Shown here: positions 3,796 to 39,128 of the stretch, in pieces | How positions within the stretch are numbered: the stretch's first letter is position 1 | Layout: each line of letters starts with the position of its first letter | NCBI GenBank assembly: GCA_012516125.1 | Contig: JAAYXB010000075.1 | Coordinates: 5,829 to 69,828, forward strand | DNA: 64,000 bases | Reading direction: 5' to 3' | From: Bacillota bacterium | GTDB lineage: Bacteria > Bacillota > SHA-98 > UBA4971 | Made by a program: the position numbers and the translations under genes | Notes under the pieces: model-generated | What the model saw: the letters and a program-made list of their open reading frames with translations, nothing else | What the model was told of the DNA's origin: nothing | The model's database searches: none

Positions 3796-4311
3796 ATGCG
3801 GCTCGACTACACGTACATCTTCCAGATACTGAACTTTATCGTCCTGTTCCTCCTCCTTCGCCGTTACCTCTTCGGTCCTGTGAAGGCGTACCTGGAGCGG
3901 CGGGAGCAGTATATCCGCGAGCGGATTTCGGCAGCGGAGAACGACAGAGAGCACGCGGCAAGGCTCAAGGAAGAGCTCGAATCCGAGCTTTCTCGGGCCC
4001 GAGCGAAGGCGCGCGAAATCACGGAGGAAGCCAGGCGTGCGTCCGACCAGGTCCGGGCCGATGCCCGCAAGCTGGCCGCCGAGGAAGCCTCGCGCATCGT
4101 GGCCCGCGCCCGTGAAGAGCTTGCCCGCGAGAAGGAGCGGGCTTTCCAGGAAATCCGCAAGCAGGTGGTGGACCTCTCGGTCACCGTCGCATCGCAAGCG
4201 ATCCGGGACGCCCTCGACCCAGAGACGCTGCGTCAGGTCGCGTCCATGGCCGCGCGCGACATCGTCGAGGCGAAACTCGGAGGCAAGGTCTATGGAGGCA
4301 GGGTCTCATGA
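3796..4311 (+). CDS. atpF: F-type ATP synthase subunit b
   Basis: N-terminal TM helix then a long charged coiled coil (AEE/ARK/RE-rich). GGGGGG RBS upstream. Confidence 0.85.
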   Translation: MRLDYTYIFQILNFIVLFLLLRRYLFGPVKAYLERREQYIRERISAAENDREHAARLKEELESELSRARAKAREITEEARRASDQVRADARKLAAEEASRIVARAREELAREKERAFQEIRKQVVDLSVTVASQAIRDALDPETLRQVASMAARDIVEAKLGGKVYGGRVS

Positions 4312-15929: not shown

Positions 15930-16805
15930 TTACTGGGTTTTCGACACACCTGACCTGTCCCCTCCATCTCCGTCCGCGGCAAGCTCCCGCCGCCTCCTGT
16001 CGAGGTCGTCCACGACGCTATCAGGCACAGACACGCCTCCGAGCACGGCAGGCTCGTCGGGCGCGACGCCGTGGAAGTCGCTTCCACCTGTAACGATGAG
16101 GCCGTGCCGCCTGGCGACCTCGATCCACCGCCTGGTGAGTTCAGAATCATGAGCCGGGTAGTATGCCTCGATCCCCTCAAGCCCCGCCTCGATTAGATCC
16201 TCAAGGAGAGCCTCTCCCGCCGTCCTCCCGGGGTGGGCCAGCACGGGCACACCCCTCGCCGCCAGCACCAGCCGGACAGCTTCTGTCGGGGTCAGTCCGT
16301 AATGCTCCACGTACGCAAGGCCTTCTTTCCCAAGGTATTTCTCGAAGTCGCCGTAACGTCGCTCAGGCCTCGCATACCCCAGGTTCACCATGGCGCGGAA
16401 GACCTGGCTTCTTCCCACGAAACCCTCCTTCCCGAGGCTCAAAACGTAAGGCAGGGAGATCTTGATGCCAAGCTTGCTCAGTTTCTCCAGTATCCTCTCA
16501 GCCCTGGCGATCCGTCCCTGCCGCAACATGTGAAGAGTCCCCAGGAACGTTGCCGAGGATGTGTCGACATGGTAGCCGAGGACATGAACCTCGGCTTCCT
16601 CCACGTCGGTCGATAGCTCAACGCCGGGTATGACGCGCACGCCCAACTCCATCCCAGCGAGCACCGCCTCCTGCACACCGTCAACGGTATCATGATCGGT
16701 GAGCGCGATGGTCTTGACGTTTCTATCGAATGCCAGCCGCACAAGTTCCTTCGGAGAGTAGCGTCCATCCGACGCCGTCGAGTGAACGTGCAGGTCAACC
16801 GCCAC
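15930..16805 (-). CDS. PHP-domain metal-dependent phosphoesterase (TrpH/YciV-like)
   Basis: GTG start with GAGGGGGA RBS; MAVDLHVHSTASDGRYSPKELVRLA...GGSDFHG PHP signature. Confidence 0.8.
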   Translation of the reverse strand: MAVDLHVHSTASDGRYSPKELVRLAFDRNVKTIALTDHDTVDGVQEAVLAGMELGVRVIPGVELSTDVEEAEVHVLGYHVDTSSATFLGTLHMLRQGRIARAERILEKLSKLGIKISLPYVLSLGKEGFVGRSQVFRAMVNLGYARPERRYGDFEKYLGKEGLAYVEHYGLTPTEAVRLVLAARGVPVLAHPGRTAGEALLEDLIEAGLEGIEAYYPAHDSELTRRWIEVARRHGLIVTGGSDFHGVAPDEPAVLGGVSVPDSVVDDLDRRRRELAADGDGGDRSGVSKTQ

Positions 16806-17214
16806 TTGGAAATCCCCCTCGCATCCCCTGCAGGAACACAGGAGCCGCCCTTCTTGCGATCCCGTACATGCAATTATTGCCCGCAGATGTCGGTTTATTT
16901 CTCATGCCTGTGGACATAATAGTGGTGCAAAGGTCCCCGCTGGGCCGAGCTAAGACCGCCGTGCGCCTTCTCCTGGGCGCTGCAGGCCCGGAAAGCCTCA
17001 CGGCGATCGAGCGAAAGGTGGCACCTCGCCTTGCATCTGCAACGCTTGTGCCGCCCGAGCGAAGGTCAGCGTGCGGCCTCCCAAGGATCCGTCCGGGCCG
17101 GAAGGCCTTGCCGGGTTCGAAAGAAGTCGCCCCTGGCCGAGCCAAGACTTGCACTGGTCCGAAGGTAGTCTGTGTACGGTTGAAAGATCGTGTATGGTCT
17201 ACCCAGGATCTCTG

Positions 17215-17345
17215 CTGGTCGGTCAAAGGTTGCCTCCAGTTCTGTAATGTACTGCAGCTAGAGGTTGTCCCGGCCGGAAGGTCGTTGCAGCCTCGTTAGG
17301 GACTGGACGCAGCCGGCGAGAAGGTCCGCGAGGACCTTTGCCTTT
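17215..17345 (+). ncRNA. ffs: Probable small (4.5S-type) signal recognition particle RNA
   Basis: Aligns by eye to E. coli 4.5S RNA: CUGU..., the domain IV core GUCCCGGCCGGAAGGUCGUUGCAGCC (consensus GGUCCGGAAGGAAGCAGCC) and GACGCAGCCGG (GACGCGUGUGCCGG). A terminal helix GGUCAAAGG / CCUUUG(C)C closes the molecule. Ends are approximate. Confidence 0.45.
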
Positions 17346-17400
17346 TGTCCTGTTCCCTGTGACTTTGAGACATGCCGTCCCCAACTCCTGAGAGGAAAAT

Positions 17401-17440
17401 GGGTTGCCGGAAGGCAACCCGTGACTCGTCTTGAAAACCC
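17401..17440 (-). terminator. Intrinsic-terminator-like hairpin downstream of hbs; also sits downstream of the putative ffs on the other strand
   Basis: On the minus strand: GGGUUGCC-UUCC-GGCAACCC followed by AUUUUCCUCUC, 18 nt after the hbs stop. Sequence-related to the hairpin repeat family. Confidence 0.5.
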
Positions 17441-17457
17441 CGATTCTATGATATGGA

Positions 17458-17736
17458 CTATCTCGCGGCAACCTTGTCCTTGAGAGCCTTGCCGGCCTTG
17501 AACACCGGCACCCTGGATGCGGCGATCTTGATGGACGCGCCGGTCCTCGGGTTCCTCCCCGTGCGCGCAGCGCGCTCCCTCACTTCGAAAGTGCCGAATC
17601 CGACAAGCTGCACCTTGTCTCCAGAAGCAAGAGCGCTTTCCACAGCCTCCAGCGTCGCGCCGATGACCTTCTCGACATCTTTGCGCCTGGCGCCTGTCTG
17701 CTCGGCAACTTTCGCCACGAGCTCCGCCTTATTCAA
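17458..17736 (-). CDS. hup: DNA-binding protein HU
   Basis: TTG start after a GGAAGGAGGGA RBS; (M)[85 protein letters not shown]. Confidence 0.9.
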
Positions 17737-25038: not shown

Positions 25039-25266
25039 TCAACGAGCAACAAGAGACGGGGTGAGCCGAACGCGGCTGCCGGGCTGCAGGGAAGGATCGA
25101 GAAAGTGCTGAGGGTCAGTGCTGATGATCCGTACGATCACGGCCTCGTTCGCGGACACCTGCTCGACGACCACGTTGATACCATTGATTTCCACATTAGT
25201 GAATGTCCTTTCTCTATCGATGCCCTCCAGGACCAGCTCGAGCGGAAGAACGGTGTACAGGATCAT
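25039..25266 (-). CDS. ylzJ: YlzJ-like small protein
   Basis: 75 aa beginning MILYT..., overlapping the tepA stop by 4 nt. This position directly downstream of tepA is where ylzJ sits in Bacillus. Confidence 0.5.
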
Positions 25267-26105
25267 TGCAGCCGCCCAGCCTCCCTGTCGGCGACCTCGG
25301 CGCGGCCGGCTCGCCTCTCCTCAATCATCCTGTTGAGCGCGGCAAGCGCGTCCGAGAGGCCCCCGACCGCGTCCATGAGGCCGAGGTTGACGGCATCGCT
25401 CCCCACGAGGACTGTGCCGACGTCTCGCACAAGCTCTCCTGTGCGGAACATGAGCTCCCGGAACTTCTCCGGGCTGATTCTGGTGTGCTCGGCCACGAAT
25501 TTGATGACCCGGTCCTGCATTTTCTCCAGGTACTCGTAGGTTTGGGGAACGCCTATGACAAGCCCGGAGAGCCGCAGCGGGTGCACCGTCACTGTGGCCG
25601 TCGAGGCGATGAGGCGGTACTTGCAGCTCACGGCGACCGGCAGGGCAATCGAGTGACCCCCGCCGAGCACGAGGGACACCGAGGGCTTCGACATGCTCTC
25701 GATCATCTCAGCGATGGCAAGCCCTGCCTCCACGTCGCCGCCCACGGTGTTCAGAACGACGAGGAGGCCCTCGATAGCGGGATTCTGCTCGACGGCCACA
25801 AGCTGCGGGATAACGTGCTCGTACTTGGTACTCTTGTTCTGGGGAGGCAGAACGATGTGCCCCTCGATCTGGCCGATTATCGTCATCACGTGTATGTTGC
25901 TCTGCGGCGCCGGAGGAGTGCGCATCTCACCGAGTTGTTTCAGCGATGCTGGAGCCGACTCAGGAGTGTCCGGCACCTCGCCCGGCGTCCCGGGGGACGG
26001 CGTCTTCTCTGGAACCGGGCTGATCTCGCCGCCGAGCTTTGCCGGCGCAGGGCTGGAAATTGAAAGCGTGCAGCCGGTGCCGCACCGGTCGCTCATCTCA
26101 TTCAA
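25263..26105 (-). CDS. tepA: TepA/YmfB-like ClpP-fold (SDH-family) serine protease
   Basis: ClpP-like core ([18 protein letters not shown]...), a Pro-rich N-terminal extension, AGGAGG RBS. Confidence 0.65.
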
Positions 26106-26391
26106 CCTCCTGGTGGTAGTCGCCTGGAGCAGGATCGGCTCGAGCTGCGCCGGTAAGTATTATGCGGCTACCACCCGCAAATCATGCGCCCGAGGGCGGC
26201 CACATCCGGTTCGAGAAGGCGAAGGCTAGAAGCCGCAAGCGGCGTGGAAGCCAGGGGGCTCTGGCGCCGCCGCGAGAGTCGCAAGACACGGAAGGCCGCG
26301 CTCAAGCCCGCAGGGACCTTCTCGCGGCCTTACATGCCGACCGAGCGGTTGACCCGCCGCCGCGGTGCGACCAGCGGTACGAGCCGGATGC

Positions 26392-36629: not shown

Positions 36630-36788
36630 GTCTTTCCCCTCCTCCATTCATGTCCTCATGTCCGTTCGCCCACGCCGGCCACAGCAAGCGAGAGGAAAAC
36701 GAAGAGCCGCCCGGTGCCCGGCCTTCCACGGCTGGACCCGCGACGGCGTCTTCCCAGCGGATGCCGAAGGCCACCCGGGCCTTTACCT

Positions 36789-37595
36789 CTAGTGGATCTC
36801 GATATCAGATGCCCCGAACCTCGCAAGCACGTTCTTCGCGTCGTCCACGGTGTTGTCGTCGGCCTTCACAACCGCGAGGATCTTGCCTTCCTTCACCTTG
36901 TTCTCGTAGTACCTTCCCCGCTCCTCGGGAATGCCGAGGTCAACGAGGCCTCCCACGATCCCGCCGGTCACAGCCCCGGTGAGACCTGCAGCTATGGGGC
37001 CCGCAGCGACGATCGGGCCGATCCCGGGGATGGCAAGCGCGCCAAGCCCGGCGAGAAGGCCCGTCGCGCCCCCTATGGCGCCGCCGGTGAGGGTCCCACC
37101 GGTAATGTCATTTCCCCCTCCCCGCATCGTGAGCCCGCCCTCGCCTCGGTCGCCTCCCTTCATGCGGTCCTCCTTCGCCACGATGGATACCTTGTCATCA
37201 CCGAAGCCCTTTCGCTTCAGCTCCTCGACCGCCCTTTCCGCCTGATCGCGTGAATCAAACGTGCCTATTACGCTTGCCATTTGCAAAGCCTCCTCCGAAA
37301 GACTGGATTTCGGCTTTAGTTTGACATAATGGCAAGCCTCGTATTCACCGTAGTCCACGGCGGCCGCGACCTGCTCGTTACACTGCTCACGGGAGTCCGA
37401 TGCATCATGGCCCTCGAGCTTCTCCTTGATGCGCAGGTACTGGGCGACAAGCCTGTCCAGGTTTTCGCTGATGCGGTATGTCTCCGCCCCGTCAAGCCTT
37501 CCGTCGTCCCGGGCTATGGCCGTGTGCAGCTCCGCGCGCAACTCCTCGATGGCACCCCGGAGCGACTGAAGCCTCTCGTCTATCCCGTCGACCAT
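36789..37595 (-). CDS. Spo0E-family aspartyl-phosphate phosphatase-like domain fused in frame to a YflT/GSP17M-like general stress protein domain
   Basis: GGAGGGAG RBS then ATG at 37595. N-terminal part IEELRAELHTAIARDDGRLDGAETYRISENLDRLVAQYLRIKE has the Spo0E SQELD-type motif. C-terminal part VIGTFDSRDQAERAVEELKRKGFGDDKVSIVAKED...Gly-rich...RYYENKVKEGKILAV is YflT-like. An internal GGAGGAGG-ATG (MASVIG...) occurs in the same frame. Confidence 0.6.
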   Translation of the reverse strand: MVDGIDERLQSLRGAIEELRAELHTAIARDDGRLDGAETYRISENLDRLVAQYLRIKEKLEGHDASDSREQCNEQVAAAVDYGEYEACHYVKLKPKSSLSEEALQMASVIGTFDSRDQAERAVEELKRKGFGDDKVSIVAKEDRMKGGDRGEGGLTMRGGGNDITGGTLTGGAIGGATGLLAGLGALAIPGIGPIVAAGPIAAGLTGAVTGGIVGGLVDLGIPEERGRYYENKVKEGKILAVVKADDNTVDDAKNVLARFGASDIEIH

Positions 37596-38808
37596 GGTAC
37601 TCCCTCCGAATGAACGACGATTTCGCCTTCCGCGGGCCAACCGCGGCCGCAACGGGCACCGCCCCGCCGAGCAGCTCCGCTGCCACCTCGCGCACGTCAT
37701 CTCCGGTCACGCCATCGATCCTTCTGAAAACCTCATCCGGTGTCTCCAGAGGTTCGTGGAAGAGCTCGAGCCGTCCGAGCCTGCTCATGCGGCTGTTGGT
37801 CGTCTCGAGATTCAACACGAGACTGCTTTTCAGCTGTTCCTTGCCCCTGATCAATTCCTCACCGCTAATCCCGCACGATGCCACCTCGTCAAGCTCCTCA
37901 CGAATGAGGTCCTCGACGACCTTGGCATGGTCCGGGCTTGTGGCCGCATAGAGTATGAAAGCTCCTGCGTCGTCGAACGACGCCACGTACGAGTACGTCG
38001 AGTACACGAGGCCCCGATCTTCCCTGAGCTTCTGAAACAGCCTGGAGCTCATGCCACCACCGATGGCGATGTCAAGGAGGTAAAGCGCAAATCTCTTTGG
38101 GTGCTTTCTGTTGTACGCTTCGACCCCGAGGCAAAGGTGCACTTGCTCGGTGTTCTTCGGTCGAAACACGCGCGCGCCCGGGATCCACGACGGCCGCACC
38201 TCAGCAGACTGGGCGGAGGACGGCAAGCTGAGGTGTCTCTCCACCGCCTCCACGACCCTTTCGTGGGTCACATGTCCGGCCGCCGCGACGACCACATTTT
38301 CGCACGTGTAGTGATCCCCCATGTACCTGAGGATGACATCCCTCGTGAGATTGCCGAGTGTCTCCTGCGTTCCGAGCACGGGCAGACCCACCGACCGGCT
38401 TCCCCAGGCCGCGCGAGCGATCTCGTCGTGGACCACGTCTTCCGGCGAGTCCTCGTACATCCCGATCTCCTCTGCCACCACGCCCCTCTCTTTCTCCACA
38501 TCCTCTGGAGCCAGGAGCGGGTGGCACACCAGGTCACACAGGATGTCCACCGCAAGGTCAACGTGCTCATCCAGCACCTTGGCGTAGAAACAGGTGTGGT
38601 CCTTGCCTGTGAAGGCATTCAACTGACCGCCGACGCCGTCCATCTCCTCGGCGATTTGCCTCGCCGTCCGCCGCGTCGTGCCCTTGAAGACCAAGTGCTC
38701 GATGAAGTGGGAGACGCCGTTCTCCGCTGGCGCTTCCCACCTCGAGCCCGCGTTCACCCAGATGCCGACGGAGCAGGATCTCACGTGAGGGATCTCCTCG
38801 GTGACCAC
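37492..38808 (-). CDS. M16 family zinc peptidase (YmxG/MlpA-like)
   Basis: HxxEH zinc motif (HFIEHLVFKG). The C-terminal ~45 aa are Arg-rich and overlap the next gene, so the true stop may be upstream (possible frameshift). Confidence 0.8.
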   Translation of the reverse strand: MVTEEIPHVRSCSVGIWVNAGSRWEAPAENGVSHFIEHLVFKGTTRRTARQIAEEMDGVGGQLNAFTGKDHTCFYAKVLDEHVDLAVDILCDLVCHPLLAPEDVEKERGVVAEEIGMYEDSPEDVVHDEIARAAWGSRSVGLPVLGTQETLGNLTRDVILRYMGDHYTCENVVVAAAGHVTHERVVEAVERHLSLPSSAQSAEVRPSWIPGARVFRPKNTEQVHLCLGVEAYNRKHPKRFALYLLDIAIGGGMSSRLFQKLREDRGLVYSTYSYVASFDDAGAFILYAATSPDHAKVVEDLIREELDEVASCGISGEELIRGKEQLKSSLVLNLETTNSRMSRLGRLELFHEPLETPDEVFRRIDGVTGDDVREVAAELLGGAVPVAAAVGPRKAKSSFIRREYHGRRDRREASVAPGCHRGVARGAAHGHSPGRRKA

Positions 38809-39128
38809 TCTTGCGCCACACGGAAGAACCGTCCGCTTGTAAGAGGCTGTGCCACGCCACTTTGACAGATCTCTCCACCCCTCGTCATCAAACGACAGAC
38901 ACTGATAGATTCGCCCACGTCAATATGATTCCTCTTTCATCCGGAGAGAATCTCACCGCGATCTTTCGCCTGGACGGACGGCGGTGGCTGCATGGCAGCT
39001 TATGCAGAAACAGGCTCCGCTAGAGGAAGTTACATAAAGGATCGTAGGCTTCGCAGTAGAACTGGACATTACACACCGTGTGCGTCCGCGTGCGGCCGGA
39101 CGCTTCCGCCAAGGAGGAGAAGCCCGAC

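Follow-up and report, generated by a model that had tools for sequence, protein, structure and literature searches.

We analysed a 64,000-nucleotide (nt) stretch of a Bacillota bacterium genome (GTDB lineage Bacteria; Bacillota; SHA-98; UBA4971; contig JAAYXB010000075.1 of assembly GCA_012516125.1), referred to below as the window, in which positions 36789..37595 of the minus strand form a single open reading frame (ORF) of 268 codons plus a stop. The frame begins with ATG (37595-37593), ends with TAG (36791-36789) and contains no stop between them. It joins a Spo0E-like domain through a linker to a YflT-like part that is predicted to be a membrane protein. A preliminary description, made from the letters of the window alone, had proposed this in-frame fusion, and the fusion is real: the 268-codon ORF is uninterrupted and both Pfam domains score above their cut-offs. 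The features of the gene, from its upstream end, are as follows.

37600..37607 (minus strand), Shine-Dalgarno sequence of the long ORF, GGAGGGAG, with a 4-nt spacer to the ATG at 37595
36789..37595 (minus strand), fused ORF (Spo0E-like domain, linker, YflT-like membrane protein), defined by the open frame and two Pfam domains above gathering cut-offs
37410..37595 (minus strand), Spo0E-like two-helix hairpin, residues 1-62 (Pfam PF09388)
37281..37409 (minus strand), linker, residues 63-105, unconserved as protein and predicted to be disordered
37317..37346 (minus strand), forespore-type (sigmaF/sigmaG-like) promoter motif within the linker: -35 box GAATA at 37346-37342, 18-nt spacer, -10 box CAAACTA at 37323-37317
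37289..37296 (minus strand), internal Shine-Dalgarno sequence GGAGGAGG, 8 nt before the internal ATG
37278..37280 (minus strand), internal start codon ATG of the YflT-like part, equivalent to the start of the separate gene in unfused relatives
37146..37280 (minus strand), YflT-like N-terminal beta-alpha-beta half-domain, residues 106-150 (Pfam PF11181)
36942..37106 (minus strand), uncharged Gly-rich hydrophobic segment, residues 164-218, likely a membrane hairpin or glycine zipper
36792..36926 (minus strand), C-terminal alpha-beta-alpha-beta half-domain, residues 224-268, modelled with a predicted local distance difference test (pLDDT) score of 80-90

Residues 14-54 match the Pfam family SpoOE-like (PF09388) at 32.2 bits, against a gathering threshold of 23. 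The SxxxD signature reads SENLD (residues S43-D47; window 37469-37455, minus strand), as the preliminary description had recognized, and S43 and D47 are invariant in seven orthologues. A profile of seven orthologues matched PDB entry 2bzb_A (E=1.7e-4), with SesLD aligned to SRDLD, and AlphaFold2 modelled a helical hairpin (helices 2-28 and 36-61, pLDDT 60-80), for which a Foldseek search returned no Spo0E structure. Proteins of the Spo0E family are described as having an SxxxD motif, two helices and 40-100 residues, with the second helix touching Spo0A (bioRxiv 10.1101/2023.03.28.534590). Sister lineages have spo0E-like genes within this stand-alone size (65-90 amino acids (aa)), which the 268-aa ORF of the window exceeds.

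Scanned in full with HMMER, a set of 1.84 billion representative proteins yielded 27 relatives of the N-terminal domain. All 22 short matches were stand-alone proteins of 55-93 aa, including six of six with a SpoOE-like domain when scanned against Pfam; the five longer matches were multi-stretch alignments, and the three of these scanned against Pfam had no SpoOE-like domain. Because the scan of these 1.84 billion proteins gave no other fusion of the Spo0E-like subfamily, the fused architecture is limited to the present clade as far as the search reaches. A word-indexed protein search with a 105-aa N-terminal query gave zero matches and missed the known fused relatives too, which we took as a limit of that search tool. 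The N-terminal domain would bind a response regulator in its phosphorylated form, most likely Spo0A~P, and promote its dephosphorylation.

The YflT-like part comprises 163 residues, within the range of a conserved family of about 160 residues, and is laid out as a beta-alpha-beta unit, a Gly-rich loop, a 55-residue hydrophobic segment and an alpha-beta-alpha-beta unit. Pfam YflT (PF11181) matches residues 109-145 at 36.9 bits (gathering threshold 26.2), covering only positions 2-38 of the 99 in the model, and this N-terminal half-domain is modelled with a pLDDT of about 87. The C-terminal half-domain has a sub-threshold match to the C-terminal part of ActD, and the YflT-like part also has a sub-threshold match to DUF1269; no NCBIfam family matches it. 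At its end, E266 and H268 are invariant. The 55 residues of the Gly-rich segment (164-218) include no charged residue, reach a Kyte-Doolittle maximum of 1.95 over 19 residues and are long enough for two membrane passes; the segment is nearly invariant in 61 homologues and is modelled by AlphaFold2 with low confidence. We infer that it inserts into the membrane as a hairpin, in which case the Spo0E-like domain would be tethered to the cytoplasmic face of the membrane through the flexible 43-residue linker.

A PDB sequence search with the YflT-like half gave a spurious low-complexity match alone and no relative with a solved structure, and Foldseek searches with the AlphaFold2 models gave no significant match (E of 0.2 or higher). 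The top Foldseek matches for this half were consistently PII, GlnK and PstA, none of them significant, the best being 4rwx_C (probability 0.91, target template modelling score 0.72). We take this resemblance as a lead, not a result. In the family of about 160 aa (P0005-P0119), an invariant E-x-H, whose His is the final residue, closes the proteins, and the hydrophobic motif GALAIPGxGPxxAxGP is almost invariant. Cyanobacterial relatives of the YflT-like half are about 420 aa long and are often misnamed 'histidine kinase'.

DNA from relatives was gathered as the loci of protein matches and from GTDB species representatives (proteins are numbered P and loci L). Protein searches found three full-length fused relatives (P0001-P0003; 84-96% identity), and the ORF is uninterrupted in the window, P0001, L001/L002, L003, L004/L011, L010 and L012-L015, which stem from different studies. 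The same fused ORF is thus present in at least nine independent assemblies from six GTDB species, with a protein divergence of 1-16%, and the fused sequences are monophyletic on a tree of the YflT-like part and DapB. Its recurrence in independent assemblies of one clade, with in-frame indels in the linker, identifies the fusion as inherited rather than artefactual.

Related loci carry the two halves as separate genes. In L017-L020, an 83-codon spo0E-like gene ends with a TAG or TAA that directly abuts the ATG of the yflT-like gene in the same frame; at the position of the TAG, the window has CAA and L015 has CAG. L009 has a TGA 29 codons before the yflT-like ATG, and L016 a TAG and a frame change. 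In L022, a 65-codon spo0E-like gene is followed by a 168-nt spacer and the yflT-like gene, and the outgroup L023 has the order M16, dut, 90-codon spo0E-like gene, 83-codon PRC-barrel ymxH, yflT-like gene and dapB. In L021 and L024 the yflT-like gene stands alone. The arrangement of three ordinary genes that the preliminary description had set against a fusion is therefore that of the sister lineages, with a stop between the two genes, and is false for the fused clade. Its statement that ymxH is gone from the usual slot agrees with the outgroup, in which ymxH lies between the two genes, and with the lack of any PRC-barrel ymxH homologue in the whole window. A derivation of the linker from a ymxH or dut remnant was rejected, as tblastn with the L023 proteins showed no trace of either.

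Comparison of these loci shows that the fusion originated from an adjacent gene pair. The ancestor had a spo0E-like gene of about 65-90 codons just upstream of a yflT-like gene, in a conserved sporulation locus of the order M16 - spo0E-like - (ymxH) - yflT-like - dapB - dpaA - dpaB - asd. In the wider lineage, which is without ymxH, the two genes became contiguous, and absence of the stop in the high-GC clade, to which the window belongs, gives one 268-residue protein.

Selection differs among the parts of the gene. Across nine fused sequences, the ratio of nonsynonymous to synonymous divergence (dN/dS) was 0.28 for the Spo0E-like domain and 0.02-0.10 for the YflT-like parts (0.07 in the N-terminal half-domain and 0.02 in the Gly-rich segment), compared with 0.87 for the linker as a whole. 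From these regional values, both domains are kept as proteins and the linker is almost free to vary. The linker, which the peptide EQCNEQVAAAVDYGEYEACHYVK would span in the predicted long product, has 43 residues, is acidic and unconserved, and is disordered at residues 63-103 in the AlphaFold2 model (pLDDT below 50). The preliminary description had it as a stop-free, low-complexity stretch of about 45 aa; it is free of stops, and its length and character are amended accordingly. Two independent linker indels, of 4 and 5 codons, are in frame, and a further indel near the N terminus spans 3 codons. None of the nine fused sequences has a stop in the ORF frame of the linker, and every one has stops in both other frames. 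Under neutrality, the chance of a stop-free linker is about 0.004 (at least 106 substitutions, with 5% of point mutations creating a stop), a rough estimate since the variable part of the linker aligns poorly. The stop-free linker and the in-frame indels suggest that the fused open frame is maintained, though weakly.

The downstream part of the linker is constrained in another way. In codons 85-105, the last 21 of the linker, synonymous divergence (dS) falls to 0.15, compared with 0.4-0.9 elsewhere, and dN/dS is 1.16, which indicates constraint on the DNA and not on the protein. In the ~70 nt that lead up to the internal start, fifteen loci form a gap-free alignment. The -10 box CAAACTA is invariant in these 15 loci and the -35 box is G[AC]ATA (GAATA in 11, GCATA in four), with the 18-nt spacing kept and a variable spacer sequence. 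L009 and L016, in which this stretch does not code for protein, keep both boxes as well, and near-consensus variants lie upstream of the yflT-like gene in L023 (GAATA-N17-CAGACTA), L022 (GAATG-N17-TAAACTA) and L021 (GCATA-N18-CATGCTA).

In Bacillus subtilis, the forespore sigmaF/sigmaG consensus consists of a -35 box GHATR, a spacer of 17-18 nt and a -10 box CAHWHTA, and the linker site GAATA-N18-CAAACTA conforms to it in all three elements. This pattern has two matches in the window on both strands (128 kb searched), against 0.16 expected. A literature search found no written sigmaG consensus, and mapped promoters of Clostridioides difficile were used in its place: with a position weight matrix (PWM) built from 40 mapped sigmaF and sigmaG promoters (PMC3789822, Table S6), the linker site had the highest score of the whole window, at 12.1 bits against a training median of 10.4.

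Just downstream of the motif lie the start signals of the YflT-like part. The preliminary description had placed a Shine-Dalgarno sequence 7 nt before an in-frame ATG; both are present, with a spacer of 8 nt. Fourteen of the 15 loci share a GGAGG core, the exception being L003 with GGAGGGGG, and the internal start in fused sequences is ATG in five and GTG in four; in the window, (M)ASVIGTFDSR would be the N terminus of the short product. That the YflT-like domain could be translated alone, as had been suggested, is in keeping with a Shine-Dalgarno sequence and an ATG or GTG in all 15 loci and the promoter-like motif just upstream. At the Shine-Dalgarno site of the long ORF, TTCGGAGGGA is likewise shared by almost every aligned locus, even by L019 and L020, where M16 is missing. 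Scans for other signals were negative: a sigma-70 scan found no promoter on the strand of the gene between M16 and dapB, and pattern scans upstream of both start codons gave no match for sigmaB (within 200-300 nt), sigmaE/K or sigmaH. No Rfam family matched the region or any other part of the window, so the conserved nucleotides of the linker are not a known RNA element. Taken together, the alignments show a single inherited ORF in which both domains are under purifying selection, and nucleotide-level conservation of the putative expression signals that belong to the downstream half.

Two further sites lie elsewhere in the window. The second pattern match, GCATG-N18-CATAATA (26158-26187, minus strand), precedes by about 50 nt a ClpP-like gene (25263-26105, minus strand) that occupies the TepA position of a dapA...tepA...spoIIIE synteny; in C. 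difficile, tepA has a mapped sigmaF promoter and is sigmaF-dependent (PMC3789822, Table S6). The second-best PWM score, at 16893 on the plus strand, falls in a stretch of ~0.8 kb (16700-17500) with no convincing ORF and no Rfam match.

At its upstream end, the fused gene overlaps a gene for an M16 peptidase.

37492..38808 (minus strand), M16 (MlpA/YmxG-like) peptidase ORF (Pfam Peptidase_M16 and Peptidase_M16_C), listed from its first canonical start
37492..37595 (minus strand), 104-nt overlap of the M16 3' end with the start of the fused ORF, in a different frame, encoding an Arg-rich M16 tail

The preliminary description had M16 running about 100 nt into the fused gene, with a tail resembling out-of-frame sequence, and this is what we find: the tail, RREYHGRRDRREASVAPGCHRGVARGAAHGHSPGRRKA, comes from reading the beginning of the spo0E-like sequence in a different frame. 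All 13 loci with an M16 gene have such an overlap, of 92-113 nt, including members at about 49% G+C. It is a natural, conserved overlap that adds to M16 a basic tail without evident function. Annotation of the fused gene is inconsistent, with calls of 163, 244 and 268 aa and three different automatic product names in the databases, and some gene callers annotate the 163-aa part alone. In L003, the frame is open upstream of the annotated start, so its 163-aa call reflects the choice of the internal ATG as start codon.

We consider it probable that this inherited fusion, with its nested forespore-type signals, gives two products, one of them a membrane-tethered Spo0E-like protein. Since promoter motif, Shine-Dalgarno sequence and start codon (ATG or GTG) are all retained in the linker DNA, the locus most likely yields two products, the long fusion and a separate YflT-like protein. 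Transcripts starting upstream, possibly shared with M16, would give the 268-residue protein, whose Spo0E-like hairpin could reach response-regulator targets on a 43-residue flexible tether from the membrane. In the forespore, sigmaF or sigmaG RNA polymerase would start near 37309 and give only the 163-residue YflT-like protein. The nested alternative-sigma motif implies that the two products would be split by cell compartment and not only by translation. The abutting TAG-ATG of the sister lineage, followed by fusion, suggests joint synthesis of the two proteins and perhaps joint action, a modest suggestion in view of the near-neutral linker, the re-split relatives and the outgroup in which ymxH interrupts the pair.

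A more elaborate proposal makes the locus a compartment-split, two-isoform regulator of Spo0A~P, with a long membrane-tethered Spo0E-like phosphatase and a short, forespore-only YflT-like isoform that arises from the nested sigmaF/sigmaG promoter, co-assembles with the long one through the invariant glycine zipper and switches its activity. We regard this version as quite improbable. Were it true, the spo0E-like/yflT-like pair would be an unrecognized membrane-coupled module controlling Spo0A~P in sporulation, possibly including a PII-like ligand-sensing domain.

Several observations weigh against the nested, two-product fusion. The sigmaF/sigmaG consensus derives from B. subtilis and C. difficile, and the spacer, at 18 nt, reaches the upper limit of the 16-18 nt fitted to the C. 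difficile promoters. The linker is near-neutral as protein. Since L009 and L016, both sister lineages, live with a stop, the fusion is dispensable and perhaps of little benefit. Spo0A is not encoded in the window, the hairpin was modelled only at pLDDT 60-80, the YflT match spans only 37 of 99 model positions, and the Foldseek matches were not significant.

Among competing accounts, a sequencing or assembly artefact, in which a lost stop or an indel falsely joins the genes and lengthens the M16 ORF, was the concern of the preliminary description. The resemblance of the M16 tail to out-of-frame sequence, the lack of an obvious M16 start codon and the 163-aa-only annotations would all fit such an error. 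It is nevertheless refuted, as extremely improbable, by an open frame in at least nine independent assemblies, whose proteins diverge by 1-16% and show in-frame indels, by an M16 overlap in 13 independent loci and by an L003 annotation that comes down to a start choice above which the frame continues; because the sequences diverge, a systematic error common to all assemblies is excluded. The fusion may instead be real and of no consequence, a neutral read-through that followed chance loss of a stop. The halves would then work independently, the YflT-like protein would be made mainly from its own promoter and start, and the long product would be tolerated or cleaved in the linker. This would account for the linker dN/dS of 0.87, the interconversion of fused and split states among close relatives, an adjacency that is not universal (ymxH between the genes in L023; the YflT-like gene alone in L021 and L024) and the retention of every internal expression signal. 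It accounts less well for the absence of a stop or an out-of-frame indel in any of nine fused sequences despite a synonymous divergence of 0.4-0.9, for purifying selection on the Spo0E-like domain inside the fusion (dN/dS 0.28) and for the abutting TAG-ATG of L017-L020, which already hints at coupled synthesis; we judge it unlikely on balance.

The activity of the N-terminal hairpin is a separate matter. Rather than a Spo0A~P phosphatase, it could be an adaptor for another partner or an oligomerizing coiled coil on a membrane protein: its family is defined by a short helical domain of low information, and the gene lies among late-sporulation genes (dpaAB and others) and not among initiation genes. 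C. difficile Spo0E also binds the regulator RstA (bioRxiv 10.1101/2023.03.28.534590), a precedent for a different partner. The SxxxD motif, invariant in all relatives, a Pfam score above the cut-off and the profile match to a solved Bacillus Spo0E-like protein speak for the phosphatase assignment, and we find a non-phosphatase role rather doubtful.

Compared with known Spo0E proteins (Spo0E, YisI and YnzD of B. subtilis, BA1655 of Bacillus anthracis (2bzb) and Spo0E of C. difficile), the fusion has the same two-helix hairpin with SxxxD at the start of helix 2. Those proteins are stand-alone and have 40-100 residues, whereas the hairpin here is the N terminus of a 268-residue protein with a predicted membrane segment, and, unlike theirs, its first 35 codons overlap an M16 gene. 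With YflT, the general stress protein 17M of B. subtilis, the fusion shares the N-terminal beta-alpha-beta of about 37 residues; the remainder differs, consisting of the Gly-rich hydrophobic insert and a second half-domain with the sub-threshold ActD and DUF1269 matches. In B. subtilis, yflT is sigmaB-dependent, whereas the conserved upstream motif here is of the forespore sigmaF/sigmaG kind and the 200-300 nt ahead of either start codon hold no sigmaB-like motif. Together with a YflT match confined to the N-terminal third of the model, this leaves the link between stress status and Spo0A~P proposed in the preliminary description unsupported.

The closest relatives of the C-terminal 163 residues are the 'general stress protein / SlyB-like' Bacillota proteins of ~160 aa (P0005-P0119), of which these residues form a full-length member (58-92% identity). 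Such proteins have the same invariant residues and often the same locus, but are encoded by a separate gene, whereas here the gene is fused downstream of the spo0E-like part. PII, GlnK and PstA consist of a double beta-alpha-beta with a T-loop, and the Gly-rich insert sits at the T-loop position in the AlphaFold2 model; there is no sequence similarity to them, and about 70 residues of the model are of low confidence. Pairs of in-frame products from an internal start are known from IF2 (alpha/beta), ClpB (long/short) and CheA (long/short). As in those genes, there is an in-frame internal Shine-Dalgarno sequence and start here, and the shorter product would equal the C-terminal part; unlike in those genes, the internal start is a relic of a once-separate gene and comes with its own alternative-sigma promoter motif.

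To our knowledge, every Spo0E-family protein described so far is a tiny stand-alone inhibitor of Spo0A, the master regulator of sporulation, and a member in stable fusion with a membrane protein would be the family's first with a built-in localization or partner domain. The domain architecture is real and previously undiscussed, in organisms that are uncultured; a search of the literature found YflT and Spo0E named together in gene lists only, with no functional link. As the fusion descends from a tightly coupled gene pair, it nominates the ~160-aa YflT-like Gly-zipper proteins as sporulation (forespore) proteins, and these widespread, uncharacterized proteins as possible partners of Spo0E-like proteins. 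The locus also offers a clean natural case of a gene fusion that retains a working-looking promoter, ribosome-binding site and start codon within its linker. Two aspects deserve attention, the forespore-type promoter motif nested in the linker and the connection that the fusion implies between Spo0E-like proteins and YflT-like ones; on the practical side, the annotation of the locus is shown to be inconsistent and the long M16 overlap to be real.

The neighbourhood identified by Pfam comprises two polysaccharide deacetylases, a GH18/SH3 protein, M16, the fusion, dapB, dpaA, dpaB and asd, in accordance with the otherwise Bacillus-like synteny of the preliminary description. One further candidate feature lies downstream of the fused gene.

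36694..36747 (minus strand), possible intrinsic terminator, a GC-rich hairpin followed by UCUUCGUUUUCC, located by RNA folding between the fused gene and dapB

This candidate is weak (z = -1.6) and absent from the output of a consensus terminator scan; if real, it would make the fused gene a transcription unit apart from dapB-dpaAB.

The start of the M16 gene is unusual. Its conserved coding sequence extends upstream of 38808 to about 38870, and on the minus strand between 38806 and 38922 there is no ATG, GTG or TTG upstream of the conserved first strand, YKRTVLPCGARVV. A TGA (38922-38920) lies upstream, and the first canonical start, GTG at 38808, is inside the Pfam domain. L010 has the same situation as the window, and in L015 an ATG takes the place of the window's ACA. 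A CTG after GAGGGGTGGAGAG is conserved in several loci of the fused clade and in L016, so a non-canonical M16 start is possible. Farther upstream, AATCATAT (38922-38932, minus strand) is conserved across the fused clade, though it holds a stop codon in the window, and might be a candidate mother-cell-type -10 element (CATA...). In L019 and L020 (positions 3830-4000), no M16 gene lies upstream of the spo0E-like gene; in L020, a recognizable piece of the M16 3' end survives immediately ahead of the Shine-Dalgarno sequence, pointing to deletion of M16. Finally, L014 (JBLNCC010000007.1) comes from a metagenome-assembled genome labelled 'Betaproteobacteria bacterium', but its copy of this Bacillota sporulation locus encodes proteins 85-95% identical to those of the window; the contig is probably mis-binned or mislabelled.

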